Shown here piece by piece: positions 2,656 through 18,897 of a DNA stretch of 18,897 bases. The DNA is taken from positions 1 through 18,897 of the forward strand of contig CAXHJY010000479.1 in assembly GCA_964016885.1 (NCBI GenBank), read 5' to 3'. A model generated the notes under the pieces. The model was not told where the DNA came from. It did no database searches and saw only the letters and a program-made list of their open reading frames with translations. This stretch comes from Eledone cirrhosa. Lineage: Eukaryota. The first letter of the stretch is position 1. The number at the start of each line of letters is the position of its first letter. The position numbers were made by a program, and so were the translations under genes.

Positions 2656-3093
2656 TCTCTCGCGTCAGATTTGGACAGGGGAAATAACTCTATGTCTGAC
2701 ATTGGATTTAAGCCAGGTAGAAGGGAAGCAACTCTGAAATGAAAACATTTTCCTTTGGAAAATAGCTAGGAGAAAAGAAGATATTGAAAGCTTGCTTTAC
2801 ATACCACTTATATTATCAATTCATTGTCAATATATATCAACATACATATTTACATAAACCCAGACAGACTGGTGTTAACAGGTATTAATCAGTGTAAAGC
2901 ACAGGTGGATGTTTATGTCAAAGTTTGTATGTTTATAGTAAACATTGACACTGTTTTTCTTATGTTTGCCATACTTATATAAAGTAAACACACATTTTCA
3001 CATAAATTCCCTGCTGTGCTTTACACTGATAAATGTCTGTTACGAGTCTGTTTATGTATATGTGAATATGTATGTTGATATATATTGATAACA

Positions 3094-3893
3094 AGTTACT
3101 AGCTGCAAAAGGTTTTACCCTCAAAATGAAAGGCAGACTGTATGATGCATACATACGAACATCAATGTTGCATGGTAGTGAGACCTGGACGTTGTATACA
3201 GAAGACTTGTGTAGATTAGAAAGAAATGAAGCCTGCATGCTCCAATGGATGTGTAATAGTAATATATGCGAACGGCAAATCATAAACGAATTGAGAGAGA
3301 GGGACTGAGCATAAGAGGAATCAAATGCTGTGTGCAGGAGAGAAGATTACACTAGTTTGGACATGTGATGCATATGAAGGATGAGAGTTGCATAAAAAAA
3401 GGTGCAGAGCGCTCAAAGTCGATGGAAACCTTGGAGTGGGGAGACCCAAGAAGACCTGGGATGAGATGATAAAAGCTGATCTTGCCCAAATGCACCTCTC
3501 AAAGGCGATGACACAGAACCGAGATCTCTGGCGTTACACAATAATACAGAAGACCCGACTTTCCACGGGTACAAGCCGAAGCTGAAACATATATACAATA
3601 TGCCCCTACCACCTCCCACTGTAAAGTGATCGTGTAGGTGTCACAACAAAAAATCACCCAGTCCACACTGTAATTGTGGTTGTGTAGGTGCCACGGTAAA
3701 AAGCAAACAGTACTAACTGTAACTGAGGTTGGCACTAGGAATGGCATCCAGCTGTAGAAACCAAGGTAAAATCAGTTCTGTATGAACAAGACATGGTCAC
3801 CTGACCTGGCATTTCTCACAACAGGACAACTCGTCTAACCCATGCTAGCGTGAAAGAATGGACATAAAACAGTGATAATTATGATGATGATGA
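3094..3893 (+). mobile_element. RTE-clade LINE 3' fragment (post-RT region, 3' UTR, (TGA)n tail), disrupted
   Basis: Reads KGRLYDAYIRTSMLHGSETW...LERNEACMLQWMC and GRPKKTWDEMIKADL across frameshifts and stops. Ends in ATGATGATGATGA. Homologous to 9121-10146. Confidence 0.92.
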
Positions 3894-4149
3894 CAGTGAC
3901 TAAGGTCCTTGTTTATAAACTAAACTTGTGAACATTTTATGACAATACAATGGCTGTGGTCCTTGTTTATAAACCATCTTTGTAGAAGCAGCAGACATTA
4001 GATCTTCTCAGTGAAGTATATTTAATATATATATTGAGACTGTGAGATTGAAGCTGAGCATGGCAAAGACAACTGCAATGACATTCCACCTGAATACCAA
4101 GGGGGCCACACATCAGCTCACTGGCCGTGACAGCTCATCCCTCTAATGT

Positions 4150-4339
4150 AACTGTTTCTACTTTTGGCACAAGGCCAGCAATTATCCCAGTGCATTACTG
4201 GTACTTTATTTTATCGATCCCCGTAAGGAGGAAAGGCAAAGTTAACCTCGGTGGGATTTGAACTCAGATCATAAAGGGCCGTAACTCTATACTACAAAGC
4301 ATGGTGTCCGACTCTCTACCAATACTGCCAATCCACCAC
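4150..4339 (-). mobile_element. tRNA-derived SINE (short variant), full length
   Basis: Reverse complement of the 165-375 family, with GGATTTGAACTC (B-box) and ACCAATACTGCCAATCCACC (A-box head). Confidence 0.88.
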
Positions 4340-4361
4340 TAATATAATCCATCCCTCTCAT

Positions 4362-4504
4362 ATAATTGTTTCTATTTTTGGCACAAGGCCAGCAATTACG
4401 CAGTGCATTACTGGTACTTTATTTTATCGACCCCGTAAGGATGAAAGGCAAAGTTAACCTCGGCGGGATTTGAACTCAGAATGGCAAGGACCGTAACTCT
4501 ATGC
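4362..4504 (-). mobile_element. tRNA-derived SINE, 5'-truncated
   Basis: Closely similar to the 3' part of the adjacent copy. It keeps the B-box and lacks the A-box head. Confidence 0.85.
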
Positions 4505-4964
4505 GTCATCACACCAACATATCTGAAAGTGAAATTGTAAACAGCTGACCTACAGGCAACAACTTGAGTTCTTACATGCACAGATGTTTGCAAGGAACAA
4601 CCTTCTACGCCATTTGGCAAGCTCATCAAGGGTTATTAGTACATCTCACCCAAGATACCAATGCCCTAGCCTTAATCTAAGGGCTGCTGCGGCATGCAAC
4701 TTCCCTGCATGGAGCAGGAGCTCCCATACGTAAAAGCTAAATACATCCCTAAACAATACTTAAGGCTCATCAACAGATGTCTTCATCGTACACCAACTGA
4801 GTATCTACCTGTGCTTCAGGTATTGCTGCTGCATCATTTCATAGAAAGCACTACACGCACAGGTTGGTAACCAAGGCCTCAATAGGCCCAAGTCATCCAC
4901 TTAATTACATAGCTGAAGATTCTCAGTTATTAAACCCACATGGCTTAATGTCATGTCACCCTTC

Positions 4965-5550: not shown

Positions 5551-5730
5551 TGATAGTATCGGTAGAGGGTCGGACGCCATGCTTTGTAGCAAAGAATTAC
5601 GACCCTTTATGGTCTGAGTTCAAATCCCGCTGAGGTTAACTTTACCTTTCATCCTTACGGGGTCGATAAAATATAGTACCAGTAATACACTGGGATGATT
5701 GCTGGCTTTGTGCCAAAAGTAGAAACAATT
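5551..5730 (+). mobile_element. tRNA-derived SINE (short variant)
   Basis: AGTATCGGTAGAG head, GAGTTCAAATCC B-box, GGGGTCGATAAAATATAGTACCAGT, and 3' end TGTGCCAAAAGTAGAAACAATT. Confidence 0.88.
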
Positions 5731-9120: not shown

Positions 9121-10146
9121 TCATCATCATCATCGTTTAACGTCCATCTTCCACGCTAGCATGGGTTAGACGGGAGTTGTCCCACTTGATGCAAGGTTGG
9201 TCGGGTGACCGTGTCTTGCTCATATAGGACTATCTGGCAGGTTTTCTACGGCTGGATGCCCTTCCTAACACCAACCACATTTAGGGTATGGAACTGGGAA
9301 CTTTTTACCGTGTTACTTACACGACCACATTACAACGTGGACTGTGTATTTTTTTTGTTATGACACCTACACGATCTCGATCTCATTATCTCATTTATTT
9401 GGACTGGATGCTGTGGTACCAACTTTACAGAGAGAGGGTGGTGTTGGTGGGAGTGGGAGGATAGGGTAGGGGTAGTGGATTGGGGTGTATATTTGGTTAA
9501 GAGGTGCCTACTGACTGTAGGTTTCGCTTTGTACATAGGCAAGGCGGGGCTTCTGTATTACTGCGTGGTGCCAAAGATCTCGGTCCAGTGACATTGCTTT
9601 AGAGAGGTCCAAGTGTGTAAGGTCGGAATTTATCAAATCGTCCCAGGTTTTTCTGGGTCTACCTACTCTGTAACTTCCGTCAATTTTGATCGCCCTGCAC
9701 TTTTTTATACAGCTGTCGTTTTTCATGCGCATCACGTGGCCGTACCAACGTAGTCTTCTCTCAAGTAAACAGCATCTGATCCCTCTTATTCCTAATTTCT
9801 CACTTAGTTCATTTATGCTTTGCTGTTCACGTATGTCCAACGGAGCATGCATGCTTCGTTCCTTTCCATCCTACGCAGGTCCTCTGCACACAATGCCCAT
9901 GTCTCACTGCCATGTAATATTACTGTTCGTATGCAGGCATCATACAATATGTCTTTCATTTGTAGAGAGAAACCTTTTGTGGCCAACAGCGATATAAGCT
10001 CTCTGAACTTTTTCCATCCCGTTCTGACTCTAGCTACTGTACTTTCAGAGAACCCTCCACCACTGCTGATTTTGTCACCCAGGTAACGGAAGGTGTCCAC
10101 TATTTCTATAGAACCATCTGGGCAATGGAATGAGCTAGTATCCTGG
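9121..10146 (-). mobile_element. 5'-truncated RTE-clade LINE (RT thumb region to 3' UTR, (GAT)n tail), disrupted
   Basis: Reads DTFRYLGDKISSGGG...ARVRTGWKKFREL...LHGSETW and RRLRWYGHVMRM...GRPRKTWDDLINSDL. Plus-strand TCATCATCATCATC at 9121-9134 is the tail. Confidence 0.95.
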
Positions 10147-10147
10147 T

Positions 10148-10355
10148 GACACTTGCTACTTATGCTGTGGACACTTGCTACTCATGCTGTGGACACTTGC
10201 TACTCATGCTGTGGACACTTGCTACTCATGCTGTGGACACTTGCTACTCATGCTGTGGACACTTGCTACTCATGCTGTGGACACTTGCTACTCATGCTGT
10301 GGACACTTGCTACTTATTCCTGTGGACACTTGCTACTTATCCTGTCGACACTTGT
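10148..10355. repeat. 22-bp minisatellite, 9 copies plus a partial
   Basis: GACACTTGCTACTCATGCTGTG starts at 10148, 10170 and so on to 10302, then 10325, with a partial at 10347. Confidence 0.97.
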
Positions 10356-10484: not shown

Positions 10485-10502
10485 CACATATACATACATA
10501 CA
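10356..10502. repeat. Compound TA/TG/CA microsatellite
   Basis: Direct observation. Confidence 0.95.
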
Positions 10503-10503
10503 T

Positions 10504-10825
10504 TTAACTCACTCAATATGCAAATTAGGCTGCTCAGCCGTTAATTTTCATAAGGAAAGTATATACTTTCGAACGTTCAACTATCTGGCAGATGGGTAAA
10601 CGGTGCTGATGATAGCTAACAAGCTTGAAACTAGTACATCGTTCCTGTGTCAGTGTTGAACAAAAAGGTGACGTGGTTGCCTTAACACCGTATGGCATAA
10701 ATTCAGGCTGTCCGATTTGTTGACAAACAAACGAACAAAGCAGGCGTTATAATAAACGTCGGCTAAACTGATGCGTGCATATATGTATGTGTACCTGTAT
10801 GCATGTGTATATATATATGTATATA

Positions 10826-10875
<50 letters not shown>

Positions 10876-10990
10876 TGCTACTGTACGTCTGTATACATAT
10901 ATGTATGTACGTATACATACATACTTACATTTAAGTAAGTGCCATACTAAGAGTGAGAAATGAAATTTCGTTTTCATTTTTTTTTTCAAC
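10504..10990 (+). mobile_element. Diverged monomer (copy A) of the hammerhead-containing repeat (retrozyme-like)
   Basis: Collinear with the 434-bp unit at 16467-16900, from TTAACTCACTC to GAAATGAAAT..CGTTT, with an internal (TA)n tract and many substitutions. Confidence 0.85.
10575..10661 (+). ncRNA. Type I hammerhead ribozyme (copy A), predicted cleavage after A10636
   Basis: CGGTG-CTGATGA(10606-10612)-T-AGCT-aaca-AGCT-T-GAAA(10627-10630)-CTAG-TA^CATCG. Helix I is CGGTG/CATCG, extended by CTGGCA/TGTCAG and GTTCAAC/GTTGAAC. Confidence 0.88.
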
Positions 10991-11101
10991 TTATATTTAT
11001 ATATATATATATAGGAAAATGTTTAACCCACTCTACTACACTTAGTATTGAGTATTCTGGTGCGTTATGGTCCATCTGGTTATTTACCACACTTCCTTCG
11101 T

Positions 11102-16143
<5,042 letters not shown>

Positions 16144-16236
16144 TACTAGTTTCAAGCTTGTTAGCTATCGTCAGCAACGTATACCTTCCTGCCAGATTGT
16201 TGAACGTATATACTTACCTTATGCATATTAACGGCT
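16144..16236 (-). mobile_element. Inverted 93-bp fragment of the retrozyme-like unit, ending at the hammerhead cleavage site
   Basis: Exact reverse complement of 16499-16591. It contains the core (TCGTCAG at 16168-16174) but lacks the 3' strand of helix I. Confidence 0.92.
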
Positions 16237-16529
16237 ACTCAGCCGTTAATATGCATAAGGTAAGTGCTAGACACTACGGCTTAATACGGGATGTTTGTTT
16301 ACAAACACACCGAGCATTATAATAAATGTTCGGTGAATCCATACGTACATATATATATGTGTGCATGTCGTGTACATACTTATATTTAAGTAACAGCCGT
16401 ACTAAGAGTGGGAAATGAAATATCGTTTCATTTTTTCTGTTTATCGTTTTCGGTGCACCCGGCCGATTAACCCACTCGATATGCAAATTGGGCTACTCAG
16501 CCGTTAATATGCATAAGGTAAGTATATAC

Positions 16530-16616
16530 GTTCAACAATCTGGCAGGAAGGTATACGTTGCTGACGATAGCTAACAAGCTTGAAACTAGTACAGCGTTCC
16601 TTTGTCAGTGTTGAAC
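16530..16616 (+). ncRNA. Type I hammerhead ribozyme, predicted cleavage after A16591
   Basis: CGTTG-CTGACGA(16561-16567)-T-AGCT-aaca-AGCT-T-GAAA(16582-16585)-CTAG-TA^CAGCG. Helix I is extended by AAGG/CCTT, CTGGCA/TGTCAG and GTTCAACA/TGTTGAAC. Confidence 0.9.
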
Positions 16617-16963
16617 AAACGAGCAACGGTGGTTGCTAGACACTACGGCTTAATACGGGATGTTTGTTTACAAACACACCGAGCATTATAATAAATGTTC
16701 GGTGAATCCATACGTACATATATATATGTGTGCATGTATGTATATATATATATATATATATATATACATACTACTGTACGTCGGTATACATATATGTATG
16801 TACGTGTACATACTTATATTTAAGTAACAGCCGTACTAAGAGTGGGAAATGAAATATCGTTTCATTTTTTCCGTTTATCGTTTTCGGTGCACCCGGCCGA
16901 TTAACCCACTCGATATGCAAATTGGGCTACTCAGCCGTTAATATGCATAAGGTAAGTATATAC

Positions 16964-17050
16964 GTTCAACAATCTGGCAGGAAGGTATACGTTGCTGACG
17001 ATAGCTAACAAGCTTGAAACTAGTACAGCGTTCCTTTGTCAGTGTTGAAC
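16964..17050 (+). ncRNA. Type I hammerhead ribozyme, predicted cleavage after A17025
   Basis: Identical to 16530-16616, 434 bp downstream (core at 16995-17001). Confidence 0.9.
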
Positions 17051-17244
17051 AAACGAGCAACGGTGGTTGCTAGACACTACGGCTTAATACGGGATGTTTG
17101 TTTACAAACACACCGAGCATTATAATAAATGTTCGGTGAATCCATACGTACATATATATATGTGTGCATGTATGTATATATATATATATATATATACATA
17201 CTACTGTACGTCGGTATACATATATGTATGTACGTGTACATACT

Positions 17245-17455
17245 TATATATATATATATATATATATAGCATATATATATATATATATAGCATATATATA
17301 TATATAGCATATATATATATATAGCATATATATATATATATAGCATATATATATATAGCATATATATATATATAGCATATATATATATATAGCATATATA
17401 TATATATAGCATATATATATATATAGCATATATATATATATAGCATATATATATA

Positions 17456-17491
<36 letters not shown>

Positions 17492-17509
17492 CATATATAT
17501 ATATATATA

Positions 17510-17540
<31 letters not shown>

Positions 17541-18378
17541 GCATATATATATATATAGCATATATATAGCATATATATATATATATAGCATATATATAGC
17601 ATATATATATATATATAGCATATATATATATATATAGCATATATATATATATAGCATATATATATATATATATATATATAGCATATATATATATATAGCA
17701 TATATATATATATATATAGCATATATATATATATATATATAGCATATATATATATATATAGCATATATATATATATAGCATATATATATATATATATATA
17801 TAGCATATATATATATATATATATAGCATATATATATATATATATAGCATATATATATATATATAGCATATATATATATATATATATATATATAGCATAT
17901 ATATATATATATATATATAGCATATATATATATATAGCATATATATATATATATATAGCATATATATATATATATATATATAGCATATATATATATATAG
18001 CATATATATATATATATATAGCATATATATATATATATAGCATATATATATATATATAGCATATATATATATATATAGCATATATATATATATATATATA
18101 GCATATATATATATATATAGCATATATATATATATATATATAGCATATATATATATATATAGCATATATATATATATATATAGCATATATATATATATAT
18201 ATATATAGCATATATATATATATATATATAGCATATATATATATATATATATATAGCATATATATATATATATAGCATATATATATATATATATATATAG
18301 CATATATATATATATATATATATAGCATATATATATATATATATATAGCATATATATATATATATATATATATATAGA

Positions 18379-18420
<42 letters not shown>

Positions 18421-18681
18421 CATATATATATATATATATATATAGCATATATATATATATATATATAGCATATATATATATATATATATAGCATATATAT
18501 ATATAGCATATATATATATATATATATAGCATATATATATATATATAGCATATATATATATATATATAGCATATATATATATATATATAGCATATATATA
18601 TATATATATAGCATATATATATATATATATATATATAGTATATATATATATATATATAGCATATATATATATATATATATA

Positions 18682-18712
<31 letters not shown>

Positions 18713-18897
18713 GCATATATATATATATATATATATAGCATATATATATATATATATAGCATATATATATATATATATATAGCATATATATATATATATA
18801 TATATAGCATATATATATATATATAGCATATATATATATATATAGCATATATAGCATATATATATATATATAGCATATATATATATATATAGCATAT
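17245..18897. repeat. Second GCA(TA)n array, same polarity, running off the window end
   Basis: TAGCAT-punctuated (TA)n. It begins where the last 434-bp unit breaks off at TACTTATAT. Confidence 0.97.

Follow-up and report, generated by a model that had tools for sequence, protein, structure and literature searches.

We have analysed a window of 18,897 nucleotides from Eledone cirrhosa (contig CAXHJY010000479.1, the whole stretch, forward strand) and describe a young insertion at 16144-17249 that belongs to an abundant repeat which encodes no protein and carries a type I hammerhead ribozyme motif in each unit. The family is an animal non-long-terminal-repeat (non-LTR) retrozyme, a known class, and is real, young and very abundant. 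The probable origin of the locus is that the reverse transcriptase (RT) and endonuclease of a Penelope-like element (PLE) acted in trans on the repeat RNA, with a multimer or a circle as template. Within this reading, mobilisation by PLEs through RNA is very probable, and the sequences make it reasonably likely that a circle was among the templates.

The insertion consists of an inverted arm and a forward arm within a satellite. Its parts are as follows, with the monomer numbered from position 1 = 16592.

16144-16236, minus strand: inverted arm, monomer 342-434, ending at the predicted cut site; 94 nt, 100% complementary
16237-16368, plus strand: 5' junction of the forward arm, monomer 338-366 fused to 44-146; a 65-nt deletion then follows
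16369-16591, plus strand: partial unit, monomer 212-434
16529-16616, plus strand: hammerhead 1, type I; core 16561-16591, predicted cut 16591/16592
16592-17025, plus strand: full 434-nt monomer between both cut sites
16820-16878, plus strand: 59-nt 'tail' from end A (monomer 228 = 16819) to end B (monomer 287 = 16878)
16963-17050, plus strand: hammerhead 2; core 16995-17025, predicted cut 17025/17026
17026-17249, plus strand: last partial unit, stopping at the family end A in (TA)n

The inverted arm has base 16143 in common with the satellite and contains the hammerhead core; it stops at the predicted cut and lacks the 3' strand of helix I. It is followed by a small-hairpin fold-back, by deletions of 111 and 65 nt, and then by the forward arm, which runs to 17249. 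The 111-nt deletion, in the 5' junction, takes out one whole ribozyme. A single substitution (16438/16872) and 4 bp of TA are all that separate the two units. The full monomer has 37% GC, is non-coding (longest open reading frame (ORF) 55 aa) and includes a TA-rich hairpin at about 16710-16815. No RNA polymerase III A box and no promoter were found in the element, which has one weak B-box-like match. The original prediction for this DNA had recognized two identical type I hammerheads 434 bp apart, and these are present as claimed. It placed the feature at 16467-17249, overlooking the inverted arm, both internal deletions and a diverged copy with an intact core at 10501-10994.

The whole genome (3.0 Gb) was searched for exact matches, the counts of which are lower bounds on units and not numbers of loci. 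The 31-nt core has 13,428 matches, the junction motif of the young subfamily 8,365 and the tail motif 33,879, in each case with 0 for the reversed control. The hammerhead motif is therefore not a chance occurrence. Arrays of up to 14 units are present at other loci.

Two samples of loci (designated by L and a number) were used to define the ends of the copies. Sample 1 comprises 60 loci with 104 arms, namely every cluster (59 in total) in the first 100 listed matches of the junction-motif search and one other locus, with the likely duplicates L101/L102 and the two halves of L083 kept in. Sample 2 comprises 57 loci with 90 arms, picked on other motifs and with three repeats dropped. Arm ends are concentrated at two positions, 228 (end A; 33 arms in sample 1, 22 in sample 2) and 287 (end B; 32 and 29 arms). 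In wider classes sample 1 has 37 A and 41 B ends, leaving 26 elsewhere; the corresponding remainder in sample 2 is 19. Opposed arms are arranged head-to-head in 35 pairs and tail-to-tail in none in sample 1, and in 36 against 2 in sample 2. When both ends of a pair are canonical, A is combined with B in 21 of 22 and 22 of 22 cases, respectively. Across both samples (117 loci) this amounts to 71 of 73 opposed pairs head-to-head and 43 of 44 A+B combinations (p 2.6e-12). A (TA)n sequence adjoins 124 of the 149 canonical ends (68/78 in sample 1, 56/71 in sample 2). Most of these ends themselves finish in TAT, and thus their last bases may be primer microhomology. The 5' ends of the arms are scattered, the arms being 5'-truncated. 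At the locus studied here the forward arm stops at A, and the inverted arm is atypical, an exception to A/B pairing. The fixed ends, head-to-head arms and TA targets back the mobilisation by PLEs that the original prediction had suggested, and do so more strongly.

This assignment is consistent with what is described for PLEs in the available parts of the papers cited here and below. Insertions of endonuclease-bearing PLEs include an inverted copy truncated at its 5' side, and only one of their ends has a tail (PMC8557442, PMC3846280). In vitro, the length of the tail was shown to correspond to the spacing of two internal sites at which RT starts, with both target strands cut and extended (PMC11167929). 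The retrozyme copies likewise combine an inverted head-to-head copy, a tail on one end and an AT-rich or (TA)n target. They share these features, together with partial tandems and a hammerhead near the end, with Poseidon of Anolis (PMC11167929), Penelope of Adineta (PMC3846280) and Neptune and Hydra elements (PMC8557442), but differ in having no ORF, a tail of 59-60 nt in place of 30-40 nt, and a longer, retrozyme-type helix I. The non-autonomous PLE derivatives of Chlamys, such as MRC1 (PMC8557442), are similarly protein-free and form multicopy head-to-tail insertions by PLE machinery. They have 3' sequence in common with an autonomous partner and mostly no hammerhead, whereas the present repeat has a hammerhead and no identified parent.

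In the mechanism that we propose, a PLE protein, probably as a dimer, would cut both strands of a TA target, and complementary DNA (cDNA) synthesis would start inside the RNA, at sites A and B. Each cDNA strand would cross the ribozyme junction and continue until truncation, after which the two cDNA 5' ends would be joined. Some events would use an uncut multimer as template, others a ligated monomer circle, the circles arising from cleavage by paired (dimeric) hammerheads and subsequent host ligation. Some arrays are later enlarged by duplication at the DNA level.

The hammerhead has the core CTGACGA...GAAA-CTAG-TA, repeated at a spacing of 434 nt, and can be divided as ACGUUG / CUGACGA / U AGCU AACA AGCU U / GAAA CUAG UA / CAGCGU. 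Helix I has 6 bp and an interrupted distal stem (16529-16616, z -3.3). The original prediction was right that helix II has 4 bp and an AACA loop, and failed to mention the U-U mismatch on which it rests; its minimal helix III is indeed one A-U pair, around the palindrome CUAG. The recommended check with Rfam models returned four matches at E<=10 on 16520-16640, none of them a hammerhead family, and the motif is accordingly assigned from core and helices. A further Rfam scan likewise showed no hammerhead among the 150 of 458 matches listed, most of which were miRNA models driven by TA. This layout is described as that of metazoan type I hammerheads, in which cleavage is poor in single units and improves in dimers (PMC4209133), and the ribozyme is, on modelling, of a weak type. 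The circular fold of the monomer has a z of -4.7 without the TA hairpin (against 40 shuffles); helices I and II form in this predicted fold, and the core competes with alternative pairing. Among 189 units, the pairs 3-401, 254-315, 55-242 and 94-105 are kept by double changes; these pair-keeping changes are few inherited events and not independent, and some of the predicted pairs do not hold in the older subfamily. Subfamily-level changes affect 0 of 27 core and stem positions and 65 of 311 elsewhere (p 0.004; the same 189 units, from loci mostly chosen on core motifs). In a transcript reading through from the satellite at the present locus, the inverted arm is predicted to base-pair with ribozyme 2, which means that monomer would be produced only from an internal start.

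The class and the youth of the family, both put forward in the original prediction, are supported, the class by comparison with known retrozymes. The core is present in at least two consecutive tandem units, the monomer lies within 150-450 bp, has less than 50% GC and is non-coding, and the predicted circle is self-paired. The animal non-LTR retrozymes of coral, mussel, axolotl (Rtz331/Rtz353) and the newt satellite (PMC7229834, preprint 10.64898/2026.07.22.740005) are alike in their short, low-GC, non-coding tandem unit with one type I hammerhead each, their predicted self-paired circle, their thousands of copies and the PLEs in the same genome. Helix III, with one pair and a palindromic tetraloop, resembles that of HHR_Amex1, and the U-U at the base of helix II that of HHR_Amex2. 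In the available parts of those texts PLE mobilisation is argued from co-occurrence and similarity to the pseudo-long terminal repeat (pLTR) of PLEs; fixed A/B ends, head-to-head arms and edited laps, as seen here, are not reported in them. No parent pLTR was found here. Cleavage and circles are in our case predicted from sequence alone. We found no paper that describes a retrozyme from an octopus or other cephalopod, or that reports PLE-type ends or edited laps for retrozymes; supplements (PMC7229834, PMC8557442, bioRxiv), Repbase and Dfam lay outside this search and may list the family. Besides this family, at least three further hammerhead-bearing repeat families with a longer helix III or II, unrelated in sequence, are seen at L131, L156, L160, L167 and L170.

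The ends of the copies bear on the nature of the template. A cut monomer would halt cDNA at position 1. Read by eye, 5' ends lie at the cut site in 6 of 30 cases (132 matches) compared with 9 of 30 (184 matches) at control position 384. Since there is no pile-up at the cut site, the enzyme usually crosses the junction, on either an uncut multimer or a circle, and cut linear monomers are not the main template. The cut site was also considered as a usual element end and rejected, being found in 2 of 71 cases read (76 matches) and at this locus, against 0 of 25 at the control site, a difference that is not significant. In each of these three cases the arm is the short second arm of a head-to-head pair, the other arm ending at A or B. 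As a trace of cleavage these ends are suggestive only, and priming by microhomology is another possibility, given the TA that precedes the cut. Two other kinds of change were seen at the same position. At L051/L052 (C2, about 365.19 Mb) both opposed arms carry an identical 19-nt insert precisely at the cut site, which so was in the template, possibly as a ligation or template-jump scar. Single-base indels are present there in L039, L179 and L183.

Runs of A>G changes on the sense strand are a mark of ADAR editing. We screened 273 young and 212 older units for such runs, and then 25 further loci; L353, L354, L360, L361, L366 and the first unit of L369, whose rows span inversions, were left out of the comparison of laps. 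Consecutive laps of the L344 array have 15 of 16 A>G changes in common among 38 A sites (p 1.6e-8 if sites are uniform), a third, partial lap shares three, and the inverted piece has the same changes. The cut-site A is changed in both laps, and differences other than A>G are mostly private to a lap. This pattern would fit repeated copying of one edited monomer, consistent with a circle. L369 leans in the same direction, its pieces sharing four A>G changes across a messy junction, and one private change runs throughout all units in each of L348, L358 and L368. L249, although hyper-edited, is a mosaic and was excluded from the count. A general excess of A>G (210 vs 125) was not taken as evidence of editing, since it falls to p 0.016-0.08 without L182 and the A17-selected loci and is absent in the older subfamily.

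The repeat element has no ORF with RT and GIY-YIG domains and is not an autonomous PLE. A GIY-YIG search of the genome gave 10,595 candidates, of which the best 150 were scored and 50 loci sorted into families. These 50 include five families (N1-N5) with a Cys-rich linker, which are named Neptune-like after a motif given in PMC8557442, and one Poseidon-like family. A very abundant Hydra-like family carries the Hydra motifs in many 713-aa frames and is not called by Pfam. Family Z has 14,800 candidates and frames of up to 1029 aa; its RVT_1 match is below the cut-off, and its GIY-YIG motif was recognized by eye and by tblastn. Open frames in these autonomous-type PLEs, several families of which are young, measure 713-1096 aa. 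Two alternative ends in TA, like those of the retrozyme, are seen in N1-N5, the Hydra-like family and Z, and a hammerhead-like motif was seen by eye in N1-N5 and Z. Tail lengths, measured from self-chosen anchors to about +/-2 nt, are 60 for the retrozyme and 60 for Z, against 64 (N3), 45-49 (N1), 44 (N4), 40 (N2), 38 (N5) and 92 (Hydra-like). The retrozyme and the Hydra-like family have a 22-nt motif in common (p 0-0.03, uncorrected). A family-Z fragment, truncated at its 5' side and on the same strand as the L344 array, is fused to that array at monomer position 90, and the 4.2 kb downstream contain no remainder of the retrozyme. The fusion could stem from a template jump or from a nested insertion accompanied by a deletion. 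Family Z is the best candidate partner, a weak and tentative one. Retrozymes beside PLE ORFs in L161 and L162 are separate insertions.

Some features of these PLEs are recorded in their own right. By eye, the 3' regions of N3 (L151), N2 (L157) and N1 (L169) have hammerhead-like motifs with U3-A8 replacing C3-G8, N2 having one further core change. In tandem copies of family Z (L386) the open frame starts within the pLTR, crosses the tail and holds long Asn/Thr/His-rich stretches. The Hydra-like expansion is young and very large, with 85,406 first-look candidates and many 713-aa frames at 96-98% identity (L267, L270), and the end of the family at these loci has only a non-canonical hammerhead-like motif. 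The Hydra clade, by contrast, was described from few families.

A number of observations weigh against mobilisation of the repeat RNA in trans with circles among the templates. No parent pLTR emerged from a comparison with eight families: the 3' regions of N1-N5, the Poseidon-like family and Z gave no significant match, and the Hydra-like family only the 22-nt motif. Fusion to Z was seen at one locus only, and Hydra-like fragments are fused to the repeat at two others. Of the 194 arms, 45 stop at neither A nor B. Since most loci were selected by core motifs, the constancy of the core is in part a circular argument. Eight of nine Xenopus retrozyme dimers did not cleave (preprint 10.64898/2026.07.22.740005). 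Modelled without tertiary contacts, the active ribozyme fold is 6.8 kcal/mol less stable than the lowest-energy fold. PLE insertion in vitro did not need cleavage (PMC11167929). L370 is also edited, with three changes in one lap absent from the overlapping lap; a multi-unit template is needed here, because a monomer circle cannot give such laps. Finally, the period-2 arrays L080 and L119, considered as circular dimers, were rejected in favor of duplication in DNA. Long arrays are accordingly no proof of rolling-circle copying, and the main caveat for L344 is that it, too, may be an early duplication.

Several of these points (the differing laps of L370, the weak predicted fold, the dispensability of cleavage and the growth of arrays in DNA), together with the lack of surplus ends at the cut site, favor an alternative in which the sole template is an uncut linear multimeric transcript mobilised by a PLE, the hammerhead being a weak or protein-dependent pLTR relic and the circle irrelevant. 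We consider this unlikely, with a real residual chance. Against it stand the L344 laps, which have 18 of their edits in common yet distinct later changes, the four shared changes of L369, and the single private changes that pervade L348, L358 and L368. A pure multimer route can, moreover, only shorten arrays. The three arms exactly at the cut site, against none at the control site, point the same way without being significant.

It is improbable that the repeats are instead truncated ends (pLTR stumps) of an autonomous PLE family outside the sample. Other PLE families do leave similar stumps, and scoring covered only the best 150 of the GIY-YIG candidates; but in tandem copies end B passes straight into the next unit with no ORF between, and in 30 tail-selected loci the contexts listed show units, inversions or flanks upstream and no ORF. 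Very improbable is a short interspersed nuclear element (SINE)-like element moved by a long interspersed nuclear element (LINE), with inversions by twin priming. Decayed RTE-like LINE fragments were recognized by eye in the window at about 3066-3540 (plus strand) and 9508-10181 (minus strand), with no Pfam match for two frames tested; against this, two outward-pointing fixed internal ends and a one-arm tail are described for PLEs and not LINEs, and no poly(A) or common LINE 3' end was seen. Equally improbable is a minisatellite that multiplies as DNA and bears a hammerhead-like motif by chance. The Rfam result and the duplication of arrays in place could be cited for it; against it, dispersed fixed-end copies, strand-specific A>G hyper-editing and compensatory changes indicate an RNA intermediate.

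The window contains a second copy of the family and the satellite that hosts the young insertion.

10501-10994, plus strand: older-subfamily copy, 5'-truncated, end B adjoining TA
11105-18897, strand not assigned: (TA)n-GC satellite, host of the young insertion

The older copy, picked by no motif search, has its core intact at 10606-10636, with one base (N7) of the 31 changed relative to the young units and about 79% identity over the whole alignment; in its helix I a U-G pair is replaced by G-U. Spacing in the older subfamily is 466-538 nt. Between this copy and the satellite, 11013-11104 is the truncated end of another abundant TA-inserting element, the motif of which is on 33 of 740 locus strands and elsewhere in fold-back pairs; it is probably another non-autonomous family mobilised by PLEs. 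A dispersed SINE-like repeat is present in several copies in both orientations (156-330, 4140-4505, 5555-5730). Minisatellites with periods of 37-38, 48 and 22 bp lie at 819-1690, 1952-2529 and 10148-10354.

A more far-reaching reading, which we regard as speculative and rather doubtful, is that the genome records a full retrozyme cycle. Monomers cleaved from dimers would be ligated, some circles would be A-to-I (adenosine-to-inosine) edited, including at the cut-site A, which would lock the circle, and family Z, with the same 60-nt spacing and a fusion to an edited array, would copy them repeatedly from two starts on both strands of a TA break. If true, both the enzyme that moves an animal retrozyme and the template that it copies would be identified. 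In the available parts of earlier texts (PMC7229834, preprint 10.64898/2026.07.22.740005, PMC7761336) PLE mobilisation, circular templates and the return of animal retrozymes to the genome are proposed and not demonstrated. Our analysis gives nucleotide-exact predictions, namely RT starts at monomer 228 and 287, a TA target and a candidate enzyme with open frames in the same genome, and the existing in vitro PLE assay could test the predicted starts. Edited copies offer a means of counting circular versus linear templates from genomic DNA. The locus itself, one of three observed with a second arm ending at the ribozyme cut, may preserve a trace of germ-line cleavage.
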